In this document: piece after piece, positions 22,104-51,779 of the stretch
How the letters are laid out: the number at the start of each line of letters is the position of its first letter
Position numbering within the stretch: the stretch's first letter is position 1
DNA from: Alphaproteobacteria bacterium
GTDB lineage: Bacteria; Pseudomonadota; Alphaproteobacteria; Geminicoccales; Geminicoccaceae
Assembly (NCBI GenBank): GCA_027045875.1
Contig: JALUAG010000052.1
Location: 55,054 to 119,053, forward strand
Length of the DNA stretch: 64,000 bases
Direction: 5' to 3'
Translations under genes and position numbers: made by a program
The notes under the pieces: model-generated
The model's input: the letters and a program-made list of their open reading frames with translations, nothing else
Databases searched by the model: none
What the model was told of the DNA's origin: nothing

Positions 22104-22186
22104 GCGGCGCCCGAAAAAGCTCCGCCGACCCACCTCATAGGGTGCGCGCGGGAGGCCGTCGGGTGTTGCCGCGCGCCCCCGTTCCG

Positions 22187-22202
22187 TTAAGATCCTGTTA
22201 AC
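22187..22202 (+). promoter_or_regulatory. Perfect CtrA box TTAA-N7-TTAAC
   Basis: TTAAGATCCTGTTAAC lies 21 nt upstream of ATG 22223 in an otherwise GC-rich intergenic region. Confidence 0.5.
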
Positions 22203-45566: not shown

Positions 45567-48500
45567 TCAGAGGCCGGCGGCGGAGCCGTCGGCGACGTCG
45601 CCGGCCTGGAGGGAGGCGAGGCGGGTGCGCAGCCGTTCGACGAGGGCGCTCGTGTCCGCCGTTACCTGTCGTGGATCGCCGGTGATGGCGAGCGGCGTGG
45701 TCATCAGCTCGAACAGGGTCTCCACGGTCAGCGCCGGATTTCTCTCGGCGACCAGCCGGGCGATCCGGGCCACCGCCTCCCGCGATCCGCGCCGCCAGAG
45801 GGCGGTGCCCACCCGCAGCGCTCGCAAGGCGTCCTCCTCGCTCAGCAGCTTGCGCCCGGCGAACTGGTTCACGATGGGTTGGGCCAGCGCGGCCAACCGC
45901 TCCCAATCGCGGGCGAGCCAGGCGGCGTCCAGACGAACGGTGAACGCGCGCGGATCCTCGATGCCCTCGAGGGCGCTCAGCGCCCCCCAGGGATTCCCGC
46001 GGGCGAGTTCGACGCGAGCCGCGAGCAGCCGCCCTTCCACACGGTCCCTCCCGACACCGGTGGCGGCGAGCTGGAGGGCCAGTTTCCCCGCCTCGTCGAA
46101 AGCCCCCCGTGCGAGGTCGGCGCGCGCCTGCAGCCGGGCGAAGGCCCGCCGCAGAGGGCCGGTCGCGACCACCGGCAGCCGTTCTTCGAGGAGCACCGCG
46201 GCGACTTCGGGAAGGCCCGCGTCGAGCAGGCCGCGGGCGAGGTCGAGGGTGATGCGATCACCCGCCTCGCCCGGCGGCAGCAGCTCCACGTAGCGGCGAT
46301 AGAGCTCGAGACGCACGAACAGGGGCAGCGGCGGATCGGCCCCGGGATCGAGGGCGGTGGCCAGAGCTACGGCCATTTCCGCGGGCAGGCCGACACTCGG
46401 CGCGGCGTCGGGATAGCGCCCCAGCAGCTCCCGCCAGACCGCGAGTGCCTGCGGGATGCGGCCCAGCGTGCGTTCGAGACGACCGAGCTCCCGCAGCATG
46501 GTGGGCTCCCAGGGGTGTCCGCGCCAGAAGGCGCGCTGGCGCAGGAAGGCATCGCGGGCCGCCGCCTCGTCGATGCGCCCGGCCTGGCGATCGAGATTGA
46601 CGAGCGCGAACTCCGCCTTGGTGGCGGTGATCCAGGGAGCTTCCTCGACGAGACGGGCGAGGAGCCTGCGCGCTTCGGTACCGGCGCCATCGCGGTCGAG
46701 GGTCAGGGCCTCGATGAAGCGCAGTTCGTCGCGCTGGGCGGCGGTCAGCGGCAGCTGGTCGAGGCGGTCGAGCCAGGTGAAGGCGCTCGCCGCATCGCCG
46801 TTCTGGGCGGCGATCATGACCGCCATCAGTCCCAGGCGGAAACGCAGCGCCGGGGGATAGGATTCGAGAATGCCCCGCGAACGTTCGAGCTCCTCGGCGG
46901 CCAGATCCCAGCTGTTCTCGCGGGCCGCCAGCACCGCTCGCCAGAGCGCCATCTCGCGGTCGTCCTCGAGCAGCGGATTGCGCAGATGCCGAGCCGCCGC
47001 GGCGTTCCGTCCCAGGAGCAGCGAGGAGGCGCCGGCCAGCGCCGCCCGCCGCTTCGAGAGCTCGGGATCCTCCTCGATCACCGGCGAGCCGGTGGTGGCG
47101 AGGAGCTGGGCCAGCGCCTCGGCGCCAAGGGCGTCCGCGAGATAGAGACGGGCGAGCTGGAGACGCAGCTCCTGTCGGGCCGGATCCTTCCGCATGGCCA
47201 GTTCGGCCACGAGGGCGCGGCGCAGCCGCCCCACCCCCTCGAGCAGCTCGGGGGCGAGTTCGGCGAGGCCCAGCGTCGTCCGCCAGGAAGGCAGGATCTG
47301 CTGCGGCTCCACCGCCTCGCTCCCTTCCGCGGCGGTCTCCGGGGGAACGGCGTCCGCTCCCGTCTCCTGCGCGGCCGTTTCTTCCCCCGGCGGTCGCGGC
47401 GGCTCGGCGGGGGGAGCGCTGGAGACACCGGGCTCGGTGGGCGGCACGGCGACATGTTCGGGGGGCGCGGCCGAAAGCGCCGGGGGTTTCTCCCCTTCGC
47501 GGGCGGATGCCACCATGGCCGGTGTCTGCGCCGCGGCGGCCGGCTCCCCCTCTCCCGCGGTCTCCGTGACCGGCGCGCGGGCGGCGGCATCCGGCGGCGC
47601 CGGTGGTCGGGCCGCCGGCTCCTCGGGTGGGAAGGCTCCGGGTTCGAGGCGCAGCCCGCCCGGACGGGTGATGGCGATGCCACCCGTCACCGCCCGCGCG
47701 CGAACCTCGGGCAGCGGCGATCGCCAGGCCACTCCCTGGGCGCTTTCGAGGAGCGAGAGGTCGACCAGCCGTCTCGGTGCCGGCAATCCGGTGCCTGGGC
47801 GATCGTAGGTGAGAACGTGGATCTCCTCGCCGGCCACGCTGTCGCGAAAGCGCAGGTGGCGACGGGCACCGGGGAACAGCAGGCGGCCCGCGGCCGCATC
47901 CGCCCGCACGGCGACCTCGGCCGCCGGCCGCTCGCCGAATCTCAGCATCCACACCGTCCCCTCGCGGCGCATGGCGACCGCCACCGGCCGTCTGAGGTCG
48001 ATGCGCAGCACCGTCGCCTGCTGGTGGGGCTCCTGGCGCAGACCGCGGATCAGAGCGCCGGCATGGAAGGCGATCTTCCTCTTCTCGGCCAGCAGGGAGC
48101 CGGCGCGGGCGTCGAAGACGAGCCAGAGCCGGCCGGCCCGCAGGAAGGCGGCGGCGCCGACCTCGAACGGCCAGAGAAAGCGCAGGACGACGGTCTCACC
48201 TTCACGGGCCGCCCGGATCTCCAGGCTCTCGGTCACCGCAGGAACGGCCGCGGCATCGGCCGCCGCCACGGCCCCGGGCTCCGTATCGCCGATCTCCGGC
48301 GACGGGACCTCTCCTGCCGCCGAGGCCGGGGCGGCGTCCGCCGCTTCGGAACCGGCCGTCCCGACATCGCCTGCCGTCGCGCCGCCCGGTCCGTCCGCGG
48401 CTTCGGCGACGGGGAGGGCGTCCGCCGAACGCCCCGCGCCGGTGCGGGGCGGGCCGGCGGCCTCCTCGCCCTTGGTCTCCCCTCCTTCCGCGGCCGCCGC

Positions 48501-49220
48501 TCCCGAAACCGGAGGCGTGTCCGCTTCGTTCTGCGGGGCGGCCTTTCGCAGGAGATCGAGCACCAGCCGGTCGGGTGGCAGCCGCATGGTTCGCGCGTCG
48601 TAGCCGTCGGCGAGGCGCAGTCGCAGTCCGCTCCCTTCCGCGGCTTCCACCGCCGCCAGCCCGTCGAGCCGCCCGAGGCGGGCGATCAGGTTCCGGCCCA
48701 GCGGGCGGGCGAAGCGCAGCGCGAGCCGGTCGCCGTCGCGTTCCAGCTCCGCCGCCGCCGCCCGTTCGCCCTCGAAGACGAGGCGGAGATAGTCCGGATG
48801 GTTGCCGATGCGGACGCCGATGGAGGCCAGCGCCTCGTCGTTGCGGCGGAACGCCACCTCGAGGCCGCCGGCGTCGTCCTTCGTGATCGTCACTTCGGTT
48901 CCCGACCGGAGCAGGAAGAAGACGCGGCCGGAGTCGGCGTCGGCGGAAACGCCGGCCACCAGCGCCCGGAGACGCGTTTCGAGGTCGCCGAGTTCGGGAA
49001 GCGGTCGGGCACCGAAGTCCAGCACCAGACGGCCGCCGCGCACGGCCGCCGTCACCGGCTGTCCGGCGAACGGGGCCACGCGCAGAGCGGCTCCCCCGTC
49101 ACGTGGCCGGAAGGAGACGGCGGGAGCGGCGCCGTCCGGGTCCGATCGGGCCGGCGCCGGAGCGGGCCCGAGAGCGGGCCCCAGAAGGAGGAGCAGCAGC
49201 AGGAGACGGCCGCCCTTCAT
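45567..49220 (-). CDS. Large secreted protein: N-terminal beta-rich (AMIN-like?) modules, Ala/Pro/Glu linkers, C-terminal ~570-aa TPR-like helical repeat region
   Basis: 1217 aa with a clear signal peptide (MKGGRLLLLLLLLGPALGPAPAPA|RS). Repeated strand-like segments (GRLVLDFGARP, DRLALRFARP, DRLVLDLL, GRLWLVFDA), two low-complexity linkers, then Leu/Ala/Arg-rich helical repeats. The ATG overlaps the stop of the upstream MotB-like gene (ATGA). Confidence 0.75.
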   Translation of the reverse strand: MKGGRLLLLLLLLGPALGPAPAPARSDPDGAAPAVSFRPRDGGAALRVAPFAGQPVTAAVRGGRLVLDFGARPLPELGDLETRLRALVAGVSADADSGRVFFLLRSGTEVTITKDDAGGLEVAFRRNDEALASIGVRIGNHPDYLRLVFEGERAAAAELERDGDRLALRFARPLGRNLIARLGRLDGLAAVEAAEGSGLRLRLADGYDARTMRLPPDRLVLDLLRKAAPQNEADTPPVSGAAAAEGGETKGEEAAGPPRTGAGRSADALPVAEAADGPGGATAGDVGTAGSEAADAAPASAAGEVPSPEIGDTEPGAVAAADAAAVPAVTESLEIRAAREGETVVLRFLWPFEVGAAAFLRAGRLWLVFDARAGSLLAEKRKIAFHAGALIRGLRQEPHQQATVLRIDLRRPVAVAMRREGTVWMLRFGERPAAEVAVRADAAAGRLLFPGARRHLRFRDSVAGEEIHVLTYDRPGTGLPAPRRLVDLSLLESAQGVAWRSPLPEVRARAVTGGIAITRPGGLRLEPGAFPPEEPAARPPAPPDAAARAPVTETAGEGEPAAAAQTPAMVASAREGEKPPALSAAPPEHVAVPPTEPGVSSAPPAEPPRPPGEETAAQETGADAVPPETAAEGSEAVEPQQILPSWRTTLGLAELAPELLEGVGRLRRALVAELAMRKDPARQELRLQLARLYLADALGAEALAQLLATTGSPVIEEDPELSKRRAALAGASSLLLGRNAAAARHLRNPLLEDDREMALWRAVLAARENSWDLAAEELERSRGILESYPPALRFRLGLMAVMIAAQNGDAASAFTWLDRLDQLPLTAAQRDELRFIEALTLDRDGAGTEARRLLARLVEEAPWITATKAEFALVNLDRQAGRIDEAAARDAFLRQRAFWRGHPWEPTMLRELGRLERTLGRIPQALAVWRELLGRYPDAAPSVGLPAEMAVALATALDPGADPPLPLFVRLELYRRYVELLPPGEAGDRITLDLARGLLDAGLPEVAAVLLEERLPVVATGPLRRAFARLQARADLARGAFDEAGKLALQLAATGVGRDRVEGRLLAARVELARGNPWGALSALEGIEDPRAFTVRLDAAWLARDWERLAALAQPIVNQFAGRKLLSEEDALRALRVGTALWRRGSREAVARIARLVAERNPALTVETLFELMTTPLAITGDPRQVTADTSALVERLRTRLASLQAGDVADGSAAGL

Positions 49221-49813
49221 GGCACCAGCACCAGGGCGGCGCGCTCGCCGTCACCGACGGCGAGGATGCGGTCCGGGGGATGCCCCATCCAGCGGCCGGC
49301 GGCGTCGCCGAGACGACGGAGCAGGCGCAGCCGTTCGACGAGCGCGAGCTCCGACGGGACCGGTACCTCGAGCCGGGTCTCCACGAGACCGGACAGTACC
49401 GGCAGCAGGATCGCTCGCAGCCGGGAGGGGGTGGACGTGGTGTCGGACGAGCGGTCGGTCAACAGGCGACGGTCGAAGCGCAGGATCACCGAACGCCCGG
49501 CGACCGCCGCCCGCAGGCCGTAGGGACGTCCGACGGCCGCCAGCCGCTGATCCAGCACCCGGGCGAGATAGGCCGCCCTGCCCGCCTCCGGTTCTGGATC
49601 GGGATCGGTGGCGCTGTGCCCGATGCGGGAGGTTGCCCGCGGCGGCTCGGTGACGGTGGGGGTCCGTCCCTGCCAGACGGTGGTCAGCGCCTGCCAGCGC
49701 TCGACGTCCAGGCGGCTCATGGCGAAAGTCAGCACGAAGAAAGCCAGCAGCAGGGCGGCCAGATCGGCGAAGGTGAGGAGCCACGGGGCGGTGCCGGGAC
49801 CGTCGCGGTTCAT
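49217..49813 (-). CDS. MotB-plug-like membrane protein with degenerate OmpA-like C-terminal domain (channel Asp retained)
   Basis: 198 aa. WLLTFADLAALLLAFFVLTFAMS parallels E. coli MotB [20 protein letters not shown], including the Asp. The periplasmic part lacks the GHTD...N..LS..RA peptidoglycan-binding signature. Confidence 0.7.
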   Translation of the reverse strand: MNRDGPGTAPWLLTFADLAALLLAFFVLTFAMSRLDVERWQALTTVWQGRTPTVTEPPRATSRIGHSATDPDPEPEAGRAAYLARVLDQRLAAVGRPYGLRAAVAGRSVILRFDRRLLTDRSSDTTSTPSRLRAILLPVLSGLVETRLEVPVPSELALVERLRLLRRLGDAAGRWMGHPPDRILAVGDGERAALVLVP

Positions 49814-50592
49814 CGGATCGGCTCCGGGATGCGCTCACGGAGGGTGAAGGACCAGCGGTCGCCGTCACTGCCGAAAAGGCCGTAGATCACCGCCTCGCCA
49901 TCGGCGCCCAGACGGTCGAGAAGAGCCAGCACCCGCTGCAGCCGCCGTGCCAGCTCCGTGACCTCGGGCCCGGTGGGCCGGGGCGCTGCGATCTCGAGGA
50001 CCCAGCCGTTCGGATCGCGGGTGACGGCGGCCATGCGCCCGAACAGCAGCCAGCGGGCACGGGGGATCTCGCCGCTCGCGTCGAACAGCCGTGCCGCGGC
50101 GAGCTCGACACGGCCCACCACTCCGGCCCGTTCCGCCTCCGCGGTCAACGGTGGTCCGAAGCGGAGATCGCGCAGTGCGTCCTCCCCGGAGCCCCGGGCG
50201 AGCGTGCCGCCCTCCACCGGCGGTGCGGGTCTCTCCGCGACCGCCGTCGCCGGTGCCGAGAACTGGCGTTCGAGCGATCGCAGAACCCGCTTCGCGCGTT
50301 CCCGATCAAACTCGGAGAGGGCGATCAGCAGCACGAAGAAGCCCGCCAGCAGCAGGAACACGGAGAGAAAGAGGGTGGATGTGGTGGCCGATCCGGGCAT
50401 CCCGGACCGCGTCGGCGAACTCACGACAACGCCGGGAACGGCGAGGGGGTCGTGCGATGTGCCCCCATCTTCCGTTTTCCCGTCGGCCGACGGCCACCCC
50501 GGGGAGACGGGAAACGGCGGTGCGGTCGGGGACGTTGCCGTGCTGCTGTCCGGTGCGGAGCCGATGGACGGAGGGACGGCCTCGGACATCAC
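49810..50592 (-). CDS. MotB-like single-pass membrane protein lacking the channel Asp, with a Ser/Pro/Thr-rich cytoplasmic N-terminus
   Basis: 260 aa. The TM segment TLFLSVFLLLAGFFVLLIALSEF has the MotB-type AxFFVLL pattern, but Ser-Val replaces Ala-Asp. The C-terminal domain again looks like a degenerate OmpA-like fold. GTG/ATG start at 50592/50589, 9 nt after the cheZ stop. Confidence 0.6.
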   Translation of the reverse strand: MMSEAVPPSIGSAPDSSTATSPTAPPFPVSPGWPSADGKTEDGGTSHDPLAVPGVVVSSPTRSGMPGSATTSTLFLSVFLLLAGFFVLLIALSEFDRERAKRVLRSLERQFSAPATAVAERPAPPVEGGTLARGSGEDALRDLRFGPPLTAEAERAGVVGRVELAAARLFDASGEIPRARWLLFGRMAAVTRDPNGWVLEIAAPRPTGPEVTELARRLQRVLALLDRLGADGEAVIYGLFGSDGDRWSFTLRERIPEPIR

Positions 50593-50601
50593 CGGGAGGC
50601 G

Positions 50602-51255
50602 TCAACCGAACAGGGCGTCGATTTCGTCCTGGGTGGTGCCGGTTCCGGGTGGTGCCGGGCCATTGAGGAGATCCTCGTCGGTGAGCGGTTTCTTGGGTGT
50701 CTGCTCGGGTTCCTCGGCGGGAGGATCGCCGAGCGCGGTGAGCAGCGCGTCGATGCGCGTCTCCACCGCTTCCAGGGTATCGACCACCTTCTTGATGCGC
50801 TGGCCCGTGATGTCGTGGAAGTTGCAGGCCTCGTAGATGCGGGTGACGCATTCGAGCAGCTTTTCCGACGCCTCGTCCGGCATGCTCTCGGCCAGCTTCT
50901 CGAGCTCCTCGCAGGTATCGAGGATGGTGCCCGTCGCTTCCTCGAGATGCGAGGCGATGGCGCCCAGCTCGCCGTTGGCGAGCGGCAGATGATGGGAGCG
51001 GATGTCGTGCGGACGCACCGATTCGACATCGACCTTGGCCCGTTCGATGACGCCCGCCAGGGTCTCGAGCTCCTCGGCAATCCGCCGTTCCTTCGCCGAA
51101 ACCTGGCTCTGCACCCGTTCGAGGACCGCCTGGATGATCTTCACCACCTCGGCGAAGAGCTGTCCGCCGTGGGAGATGTCGCCGACGTTGTCCAGACGCC
51201 GGTCGATGAACTGTTCGAGACTTTCCTGCCGGTCTCGGTCCCGCTGGCTCGTCAC
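50602..51255 (-). CDS. cheZ: CheZ-family CheY-P phosphatase
   Basis: 217 aa. ACNFHDITGQRIKKV matches the CheZ catalytic D-x-TGQ motif (E. coli FQDLTGQVIKR). The C-terminal QDEIDALFG resembles the CheY-binding tail QDQVDDLLDSLGF. GTG start with a GGAGA RBS. Confidence 0.8.
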   Translation of the reverse strand: MTSQRDRDRQESLEQFIDRRLDNVGDISHGGQLFAEVVKIIQAVLERVQSQVSAKERRIAEELETLAGVIERAKVDVESVRPHDIRSHHLPLANGELGAIASHLEEATGTILDTCEELEKLAESMPDEASEKLLECVTRIYEACNFHDITGQRIKKVVDTLEAVETRIDALLTALGDPPAEEPEQTPKKPLTDEDLLNGPAPPGTGTTQDEIDALFG

Positions 51256-51270
51256 GATTCGTCTCCGCTG

Positions 51271-51657
51271 TCAGGTACCACCGAGAACCATGGCGATCTT
51301 TTTGTGCAGGGTCTCGGCGTTGAACGGCTTGACGATGTAGTTGTTCACGCCCGCCTGCTTGGCGGCGATCACGTTCTCCGTCTTGCTCTCGGCGGTGATC
51401 ATGATGAACGGGATGTCCTTCAGTTTGGGATCGGCGCGCACCGCCTTCAGGAGCTCGAGCCCGGTCATCGGCTGCATGTTCCAGTCCGAGATCACCAGCC
51501 CGTAAGGCTTCTCGCGCAGCTTGGCGAGCGCCGCCGACCCGTCCGTCGCCTCGTCGACGTTGGTGAACTCGAGCTGGCGCAGCAGATTGCGGATGATCCG
51601 CAACATCGTCTTGTAATCGTCGACGATCAGGATGGGCATCTTCTTGTCGACTGACAT
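51271..51657 (-). CDS. cheY: Single-domain chemotaxis response regulator
   Basis: 128 aa. ILIVDD (D12/D13), VISDWNMP (D57), MITAE (T87), VKPF (K109). Confidence 0.95.
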   Translation of the reverse strand: MSVDKKMPILIVDDYKTMLRIIRNLLRQLEFTNVDEATDGSAALAKLREKPYGLVISDWNMQPMTGLELLKAVRADPKLKDIPFIMITAESKTENVIAAKQAGVNNYIVKPFNAETLHKKIAMVLGGT

Positions 51658-51763: not shown

Positions 51764-51779
51764 TTAAGGTTTGGTTAAC
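51764..51779 (-). promoter_or_regulatory. Perfect CtrA box (TTAA-N7-TTAAC) upstream of the cheY operon
   Basis: TTAAGGTTTGGTTAAC lies 107-122 nt upstream of the cheY ATG. On the coding strand it is followed by GCACATAGGAT, a possible -10. Confidence 0.55.

Follow-up and report, generated by a model that had tools for sequence, protein, structure and literature searches.

A MotB paralogue lacking the channel aspartate is encoded beside motB in an alphaproteobacterial flagellar stator operon

What does it mean when two neighbouring genes both encode proteins resembling MotB, the proton-channel subunit of the flagellar stator, and only one of them has the channel aspartate (Asp)? This question is raised by a pair of minus-strand genes in a 64,000-nucleotide (nt) stretch of an alphaproteobacterial genome of the family Geminicoccaceae (assembly GCA_027045875.1, contig JALUAG010000052.1, positions 55,054 to 119,053), hereafter the window, which encode proteins of 198 and 260 amino acids (aa). 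An earlier note made from the letters of the window alone had described the two as a MotB-type paralogue pair, one with the channel Asp and one without it, and the Pfam and profile-profile comparisons reported here bear this out, with D17 in the 198-aa protein corresponding to S77 in the 260-aa protein. Each has the full MotB fold, and the two are true paralogues. In the flagellar system to which they belong, the 198-aa protein is the orthologue of MotB, whereas the 260-aa protein is a member of a family that we designate MotB'; the locus itself corresponds to the stator end of a flagellar operon of the Rhodospirillales type found in alphaproteobacteria. These statements about identity and context are made with high confidence, and to our explanation of the locus as a whole we assign a probability of roughly 0.65.

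The 198-aa protein has a single Pfam match, MotB_plug, which scores 44 bits against a cut-off of 24 and extends over residues 7-44, an interval that includes D17. The Asp lies inside the membrane helix, where the earlier note had put it. The membrane helix and plug occupy approximately residues 11-47, and the D17 codon lies at positions 49763-49765 of the window. The helix, PWLLTFADLAALLLAFFVLTF, is almost unchanged among close relatives. In an alignment composed of the window protein, 23 orthologues from other families and seven from Geminicoccaceae, D17 is invariant (31/31) and MotB_plug is matched by every member. When the family profile was compared with the PDB, the best sequence matches were the membrane helices of MotB and PomB stators, with expectation values (E) of 5.6e-11 to 1e-7. 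Approximately residues 75-198 have an OmpA-like fold, for which AlphaFold2 gave a C-terminal domain with a predicted local distance difference test score (pLDDT) of ~90. Among the 50 matches listed by Foldseek for this model in the PDB, most are OmpA-like peptidoglycan-binding domains, as are all of those with E<=0.001; the matches include PA0833, the MotB-like protein DVU_2228, YfiB, PomB and MotS.

The relationship of the 260-aa protein to its neighbour could be recognized only with profiles, because pairwise BLASTP of the two sequences is not significant (E 0.13). Its MotB_plug match is sub-threshold (15 bits, profile positions 28-58), and the membrane helix and a plug-like helix are found at residues 69-112. 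Profile-profile comparison aligned residues 15-53 of the 198-aa protein with residues 75-113 of the 260-aa protein at a probability of 93.6% and an E of 2e-7, pairing FADLAALLLAFF with FLSVFLLLAGFF, so that S77 (codon at 50362-50364) stands opposite D17 and the A/G-F-F register is kept seven residues further on. The profile of the 260-aa family also aligned with C. jejuni MotB (E 0.003-0.0045) over residues 26-205, a stretch that begins with the membrane helix and takes in the OmpA-like domain, and in other genomes a broad MotB' profile gave the adjacent MotBs scores of up to 72 bits. An OmpA-like fold is present at approximately residues 150-255, again with a pLDDT of ~90 for the C-terminal domain, and the best Foldseek match in the PDB was H. 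pylori MotB (E 1.3e-6), followed by Salmonella MotB, OmpA and PomB. The AlphaFold2 models were built for each protein alone, from family alignments A2 and A3, and together with Foldseek they confirm the OmpA-like periplasmic folds that the earlier note had proposed for both proteins. Since S77 occupies the Asp position, which is never acidic in the family, the 260-aa protein is a MotB homologue and not a functional MotB. PflI, a small membrane protein encoded in the fliL operon of Caulobacter, was considered as another identity for this protein and was rejected, the topology of PflI being opposite, with a cytoplasmic Pro-rich C-terminus (PMC3792480); the slot after fliM, moreover, is held by a DUF6468 gene, which further disfavours this assignment.

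Adjacent open reading frames (ORFs) of this kind might also be two halves into which a frameshift has broken a single MotB gene, or pseudogenes in decay, and their adjacency and missing motifs are what could be said for such a view. However, each ORF has its own membrane helix and a confidently modelled, complete OmpA-like fold, which rules out fragments of one frameshifted gene and leaves two complete genes. In addition, the two are conserved as separate genes, within the family in five genera and across the class in 24 of 24 loci, and their third-position guanine plus cytosine (G+C) content is coding-like (0.84-0.87). We consider the probability of this explanation to be negligible. Third-position G+C is coding-like in all five genes of the cluster described below, including the 63-codon Ser/Pro-rich start of the 260-aa ORF, and because it reaches 0.81 in frame over those first 63 codons, the N-terminal extension of the 260-aa protein is probably translated. 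This Ser/Pro/Thr-rich cytoplasmic extension had been reported before and does exist, with a length of ~65 aa (window positions 50403-50592) instead of the ~80 aa first given. It is limited to this genus and close relatives and is variable in length; most members of the MotB' family have 15-25 residues ahead of the membrane helix.

How far does MotB' extend beyond this genome? Homologue searches based on a word index returned only 7-10 relatives per protein, and a full HMMER scan was hence carried out with the MotB' profile, which detected 1242 cluster representatives with E<=0.001, of which 462 reached E<=1e-10; almost all are 200-270 aa long and aligned over their full length. Those that carry a name are annotated as 'hypothetical protein' and come from Rhodospirillales, Kiloniellales, Azospirillaceae and Rhodospirillaceae bins, and neither Pfam nor NCBIfam contains a model for the family. 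In a set of 301 evenly drawn alphaproteobacterial genomes, MotB' occurs as a single copy in 72 (60/254 genera). The position equivalent to the Asp was inspected in 155 representatives and is occupied by S (88), A (32), G (25), K (6), T (2) or P (2), with no acidic residue in any of them. F85 (153 of the 155), L88 (152), S105 (148) and F110 (152) illustrate how strongly the membrane helix and the plug-like helix are conserved. In a maximum-likelihood tree, all 25 Asp-less proteins fall on one side of a branch with support of 100/99, and on the far side are the 25 MotBs encoded next to them, together with two further MotBs. Because the Asp-less proteins form one clade with such support, a single old duplication, and not repeated decay, is indicated. 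MotB' is an old and widespread family and not a local degenerate copy. Matches with one or two in-frame stops (TGA, TAG or TAA) were also encountered (G161:C100, G269:C13, G391:C23, G229:C48, G252:C12 and G381:C1), which may be pseudogenes or sequencing errors. We found no description of an Asp-less MotB paralogue in the literature, in a search that covered subscription journals poorly, so that this absence is no proof. In a recent survey of how MotAB evolved, proteins were taken as B subunits when they were encoded next to MotA (PMC12505986), a criterion by which the MotB' arrangement would have been missed.

The second peculiarity of the pair concerns peptidoglycan binding. It had been claimed that neither protein carries the GHTD/LSxxRA signature; the canonical residues are indeed absent, with the exception of one Arg that is kept in the 260-aa protein. 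Pfam OmpA (PF00691) matched neither the 198-aa nor the 260-aa protein at E<=1, while 17 of the 31 MotB orthologues have retained both the OmpA match and GH(T/S)D...NWELS..RA. Most of the 23 orthologues from outside the family read V.GH(T/A/S)DP...SNWELSL.RA..VA..L...GY...RRVDIV, whereas the Geminicoccaceae copies are without GHxD, its following loop and the conserved Arg, the window protein reading ...TRLEVPVPSELALVERL..., with EVPVP-SELALVER in the place of the motif. In the latter, the strand equivalent to GHTD is EVPVP and the next helix begins after only six residues; both residues tested for peptidoglycan binding, the Asp of GHTD and the Arg of LSxxRA, are absent, and no Arg is conserved within the genus. 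The loss of the motif in Geminicoccaceae represents lineage-specific decay of an otherwise ordinary MotB. In MotB', the Arg of LSxxRA is retained (R217 here, and in 148 of the 155 members), and an acidic residue occupies the site of the GHTD Asp in just 29 of 155; the 260-aa protein has not kept this Asp. Partial or full loss of GHxD was also observed in MotBs of other families (L082:8484-9116, L087:8563-9186, L084:9989-10588 and L092:9526-10875), some of which still retain W..(A/S)..RA. Because these MotBs also lost GHxD, the wall-binding site has decayed more than once in this operon type. Compensating changes in MotB' were sought where MotB had lost GHTD (L082, L084, L087, L092 and Geminicoccaceae), and none was evident.

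The genomic surroundings of the pair were surveyed in contigs with two family members and in 20 further genomic regions. The standard arrangement consists of flgH-flgA-flgG-flgF and a divergent series of fliL, fliM, a DUF6468 gene, motE (MgtE_N), in some cases cheY-cheZ, then motB', motB and a gene for a protein of 950-1350 aa, often followed by fliP. In all of 24 loci from different families motB' lies directly 5' of motB, which is followed by the 950-1350-aa gene with AMIN-like and tetratricopeptide repeat (TPR) modules, and in 22 of them this trio is embedded in a cluster of the flgHAGF and fliL-motE type; the other two (L052 and L085) show the trio only, with or without cheY-cheZ. The chemotaxis genes cheY-cheZ are absent from the motB' operons of L034, L077, L078, L082, L084, L087 and L090-L092. 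The five-gene cluster of the window, cheY-cheZ-motB'-motB and the large gene, recurs in several genera of Geminicoccaceae, one genus being without cheY-cheZ and still having the last three genes together. In the genome of the window, flgHAGF, fliL, fliM and motE are found on another contig (C18), where unrelated convergent genes come after motE. Because C18 carries fliL-motE and then unrelated genes, the module from cheY to the large gene is truly detached. The DUF6468 gene (mostly 135-220 aa; for example, L059:5745-6152) lies between fliM and motE in the same 22 loci, is absent from L052 and L085, and occupies the place of pflI in the Caulobacter and Cereibacter operons (PMC10954123). Some operons (L061:7494-7994 and L062:7494-7994) have a shorter gene of 166 aa where cheZ would stand, with no Pfam CheZ match recorded and 38% identity to the CheZ of the window.

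If the locus is a stator operon, which MotA does it serve? There is no motA within the window operon, and the genome has six MotA_ExbB matches. The search of the genome for an orphan motA that the earlier note had suggested found one, in the fliF cluster of contig C6 (flgD-flgE...fliF-fliG-fliH-fliN-motA-flbD). Among the 107 genomes of the order, orthologues of this MotA (44-76% identity) are present in genera g1, g13, g14, g16 and g29, and MotB' is found in exactly the same five genera, the few genome-level mismatches being incomplete or fragmented assemblies; in other genera of the order a different MotA (31-37% identity) occurs, and a MotB gene adjoins it. These data are explained most simply if the C6 MotA is the partner of the 198-aa MotB; we infer this pairing with caution, because the shared distribution may be no more than that of the flagellar genes as a whole. 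Contig C43 (11722-13649) has a canonical adjacent motA-motB pair, its MotB with the motif RGHTD...NWKLSSDRA, among housekeeping genes (dapA and smpB). This type of pair, with a long MotA, is nearly universal in the order, including genera without the flagellar cluster described here, and may be a second stator or non-flagellar. On contig C36 (2306-4135), two small genes (203 and 171 aa) that match neither ExbD nor MotB come directly after one of MotA_ExbB type (239 aa), with which they may, as far as their sequences suggest, form a further 5:2-type motor.

The lack of a motA in the operon and the other MotA_ExbB genes of the genome could also be taken to mean that the two proteins are parts of some MotAB-like machine with no flagellar role (Tol-Pal, ExbBD, Zor-type defence or gliding), whose genes just happen to adjoin those for chemotaxis. 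Elsewhere in alphaproteobacteria, however, the trio sits in the core flagellar cluster, between motE and fliP; tolQ, on contig C106, has its own tolR next to it, just as the ExbB-like gene on C36 has its own small partners; and in the PDB it is flagellar MotB and PomB that match best in sequence. Such an origin is therefore very improbable.

The five genes on the minus strand are closely packed and fill the interval from 45.5 to 51.7 kilobases of the window; their coordinates are collected in Table 1. The stop codon of the 260-aa ORF and the start of the 198-aa ORF overlap in an ATGA, a second ATGA joins the stop of the 198-aa ORF to the start of the 1217-aa ORF, and the stop of cheZ lies 7 nt before the GTG start of motB'. 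The genes from cheY to the motK-like gene are probably transcribed together from cheY, behind a candidate CtrA box that may be the promoter element of the detached module. A scan of the window for the CtrA-box pattern gave three matches at two sites, compared with none in 100 shuffles. The second site, at 22186-22202, is palindromic and matches the exact consensus on both strands (TTAAGATCCTGTTAAC).

Table 1. Genes of the stator module and its candidate promoter element, in window coordinates
Feature	Position	Strand	Evidence
cheY (128 aa; opens the detached operon)	51271-51657	-	Response_reg 105 bits; NCBIfam CheY 157 bits, under its 189-bit cut-off
cheZ (217 aa; CheY-P phosphatase)	50602-51255	-	Pfam CheZ 42 bits; same operon place in other alphaproteobacteria
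motB' (260 aa; Asp-less MotB paralogue)	49810-50592	-	Profile-profile comparison, C. jejuni MotB profile alignment, AlphaFold2 and Foldseek
motB (198 aa; Asp-bearing stator B subunit)	49217-49813	-	Pfam MotB_plug, invariant D17, AlphaFold2 and Foldseek
motK-like gene (1217 aa)	45567-49220	-	Weak AMIN and TPR Pfam matches; orthologue domains; always 3' of motB
Candidate CtrA box, consensus TTAA-N7-TTAAC	51764-51779	.	Exact pattern match, 107-122 nt upstream of cheY

The 1217-aa protein encoded 3' of motB begins with a signal-peptide-like segment and also contains beta modules of the AMIN-like type, linkers rich in Pro and Ala, and an extended array of TPRs. The AMIN and TPR Pfam matches of the protein itself are weak; among 21 orthologues, PF24837 (AMIN-like) was matched in 14, AMIN in six and TPR families in most. 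By the analogy of its architecture and operon position, this protein is assigned to the MotK/FssB/PflA class as a putative periplasmic stator scaffold. MotK of the Fla2 system of Cereibacter sphaeroides is a periplasmic protein with an AMIN-like N-terminus and TPR that is required for rotation and binds MotB2 and MotE, and it has been linked to Caulobacter CC_2058, which is FssB (PMC10954123). In Caulobacter crescentus FssB, a TPR protein, is exported, and without it the flagellum is paralysed (PMC7885107). In a 2026 review, MotE/FlgY is described as the E-ring and MotC, MotK, PflA and FlcB as its TPR partners (PMC13023049).

What, then, might MotB' do? Since it never has the Asp, it is unable to conduct ions and must act structurally. 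The role that we prefer, tentatively, is that of one half of an obligate MotB/MotB' heterodimer inside the MotA ring. The Asp17 helix of MotB would lie inside the pentamer of the C6 MotA and carry the protons that drive rotation, MotB' would take one of the two B places beside it to give an asymmetric stator, and the Asp-less half would dock onto the scaffold. Several lines of evidence seem to favour this arrangement, the first being that the helix and plug-like helix of MotB' are strongly kept in the MotB register (L-x-x-x-L-L-L-A-F-F among the 155 representatives), which a simple anchor would not be expected to need. The strict adjacency of motB' and motB and their translational coupling through ATGA overlaps are likewise suggestive. 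Furthermore, duplicated subunits of homodimers commonly evolve into an obligate pair of one active and one inactive member, which is counted here in favour of the heterodimer. With regard to anchoring, because the Geminicoccaceae MotB lost its peptidoglycan-gripping residues, the anchoring and positioning of the stator have probably passed to the 1217-aa scaffold and the MotE ring, and the stator of this family would be fixed via these structures and not through MotB's own domain.

A place for MotB' outside the MotA pentamer has also to be considered, where it would be a membrane-anchored periplasmic adaptor, MotY-like, bridging the MotB domain, the MotK-like spokes and the MotE ring, and thereby holding or activating ordinary MotA5MotB2 units. 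The retention of the OmpA-like fold and of the canonical Arg is consistent with an adaptor, as is the position of motB', always encoded between motE or cheZ and motB-motK; no one-Asp stator would be required, and other motors are known to have OmpA-like accessory proteins and TPR scaffolds (PMC7990780, PMC13023049). Yet a plain anchor could do without the conserved helix register and plug-like helix, and known stator structures bury the MotB helix inside MotA, where it is unavailable for lateral contact. We regard an adaptor as somewhat less likely than the heterodimer. A further role is improbable: homodimers of MotB' would fill MotA pentamers as a non-conducting decoy or brake that sets the pool of active stators, possibly tied to the upstream CheY/CheZ. 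A MotB-like helix and plug without the Asp are what such a decoy would have, and the grouping of motB' with cheY-cheZ in one operon in many genomes might hint at the same; however, motB' is coupled tightly to motB in every sampled operon, also in those without cheY-cheZ, a pure inhibitor made in equimolar amounts with its target would be wasteful, and nothing was seen that points to regulation of its expression. The earlier note had proposed a heteromeric B subunit or a regulatory decoy, both of which are possible. Its reading had missed the flagellar operon context, the MotK/FssB-type scaffold 3' of the pair, the orphan motA, the lineage-specific decay of the motif and the age of the MotB' family.

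A number of points weigh against the explanation that we prefer. In the rotary models now current for MotA5B2, the two B chains employ their Asp alternately, and mutants of D32 in E. coli MotB have a dominant-negative effect; a working stator with one Asp is disfavoured because of both. The canonical Arg is still present in MotB', and its domain might for that reason bind the wall; the missing canonical motif, in turn, is no proof that the 198-aa protein fails to bind peptidoglycan. The co-occurrence of MotB' and the orphan MotA may, as noted above, merely reflect the whole flagellar gene set, and the CtrA box is a mere sequence match. When all parts are taken jointly, that is, an obligate MotB/MotB' heterodimer that forms a single-Asp asymmetric stator in approximately one quarter of the sampled genomes, with the MotB' half docking onto MotK/MotE and the MotB of Geminicoccaceae also off peptidoglycan, the proposal is more doubtful than the heterodimer taken by itself.

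Current stator models describe symmetric MotA5MotB2 units that bind peptidoglycan directly, and the locus bears on both points. While its flagellar identity is ordinary, its interest lies in the apparently unstudied MotB' family and in the loss of the wall-binding residues of MotB in this lineage. A conserved Asp-less B-type subunit beside motB in approximately a quarter of the sampled alphaproteobacterial genomes would be a missing component of the motor, and if MotB' enters the MotA ring, it offers a natural test of whether two Asp per stator are needed. Similarly, the MotB of Geminicoccaceae, in which the motif was lost and the AMIN-like scaffold kept, is a natural case for asking whether anchoring can pass to scaffolds of the MotK/PflA type.

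In comparison with known systems, the 1217-aa protein shares with MotK, FssB and PflA/FlgY of Campylobacterota a signal peptide, AMIN-like N-terminal modules and TPR, and its gene is likewise the last of an operon of the fliL/motE type. It differs from MotK in being approximately twice as long, with extra beta modules and Pro-rich linkers. No motB'-like gene is mentioned in the papers on these scaffolds (PMC10954123, PMC7885107, PMC13023049).

With MotB and PomB (C. jejuni MotB, 6YKM; Vibrio PomB, 8BRI; E. coli MotB), both proteins of the pair share a short cytoplasmic N-terminus, one A-F-F helix, a plug helix and an OmpA-like fold, and the 198-aa protein shares the channel Asp as well. The 198-aa protein is different in that it is without GHTD...NWELS..RA and the intervening loop, does not adjoin motA and is shorter than most MotBs, and the 260-aa protein in that it has Ser for Asp and, of the peptidoglycan motif, only the Arg. 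MotY of Vibrio and Pseudomonas is a non-conducting, OmpA-like accessory protein that helps to place stators, and MotB' may work in such a way. MotY, however, is soluble in the periplasm, its N-terminal domain is of another kind and its peptidoglycan-binding site is intact, whereas MotB' is anchored in the membrane by a MotB-type helix and is a true paralogue of MotB.

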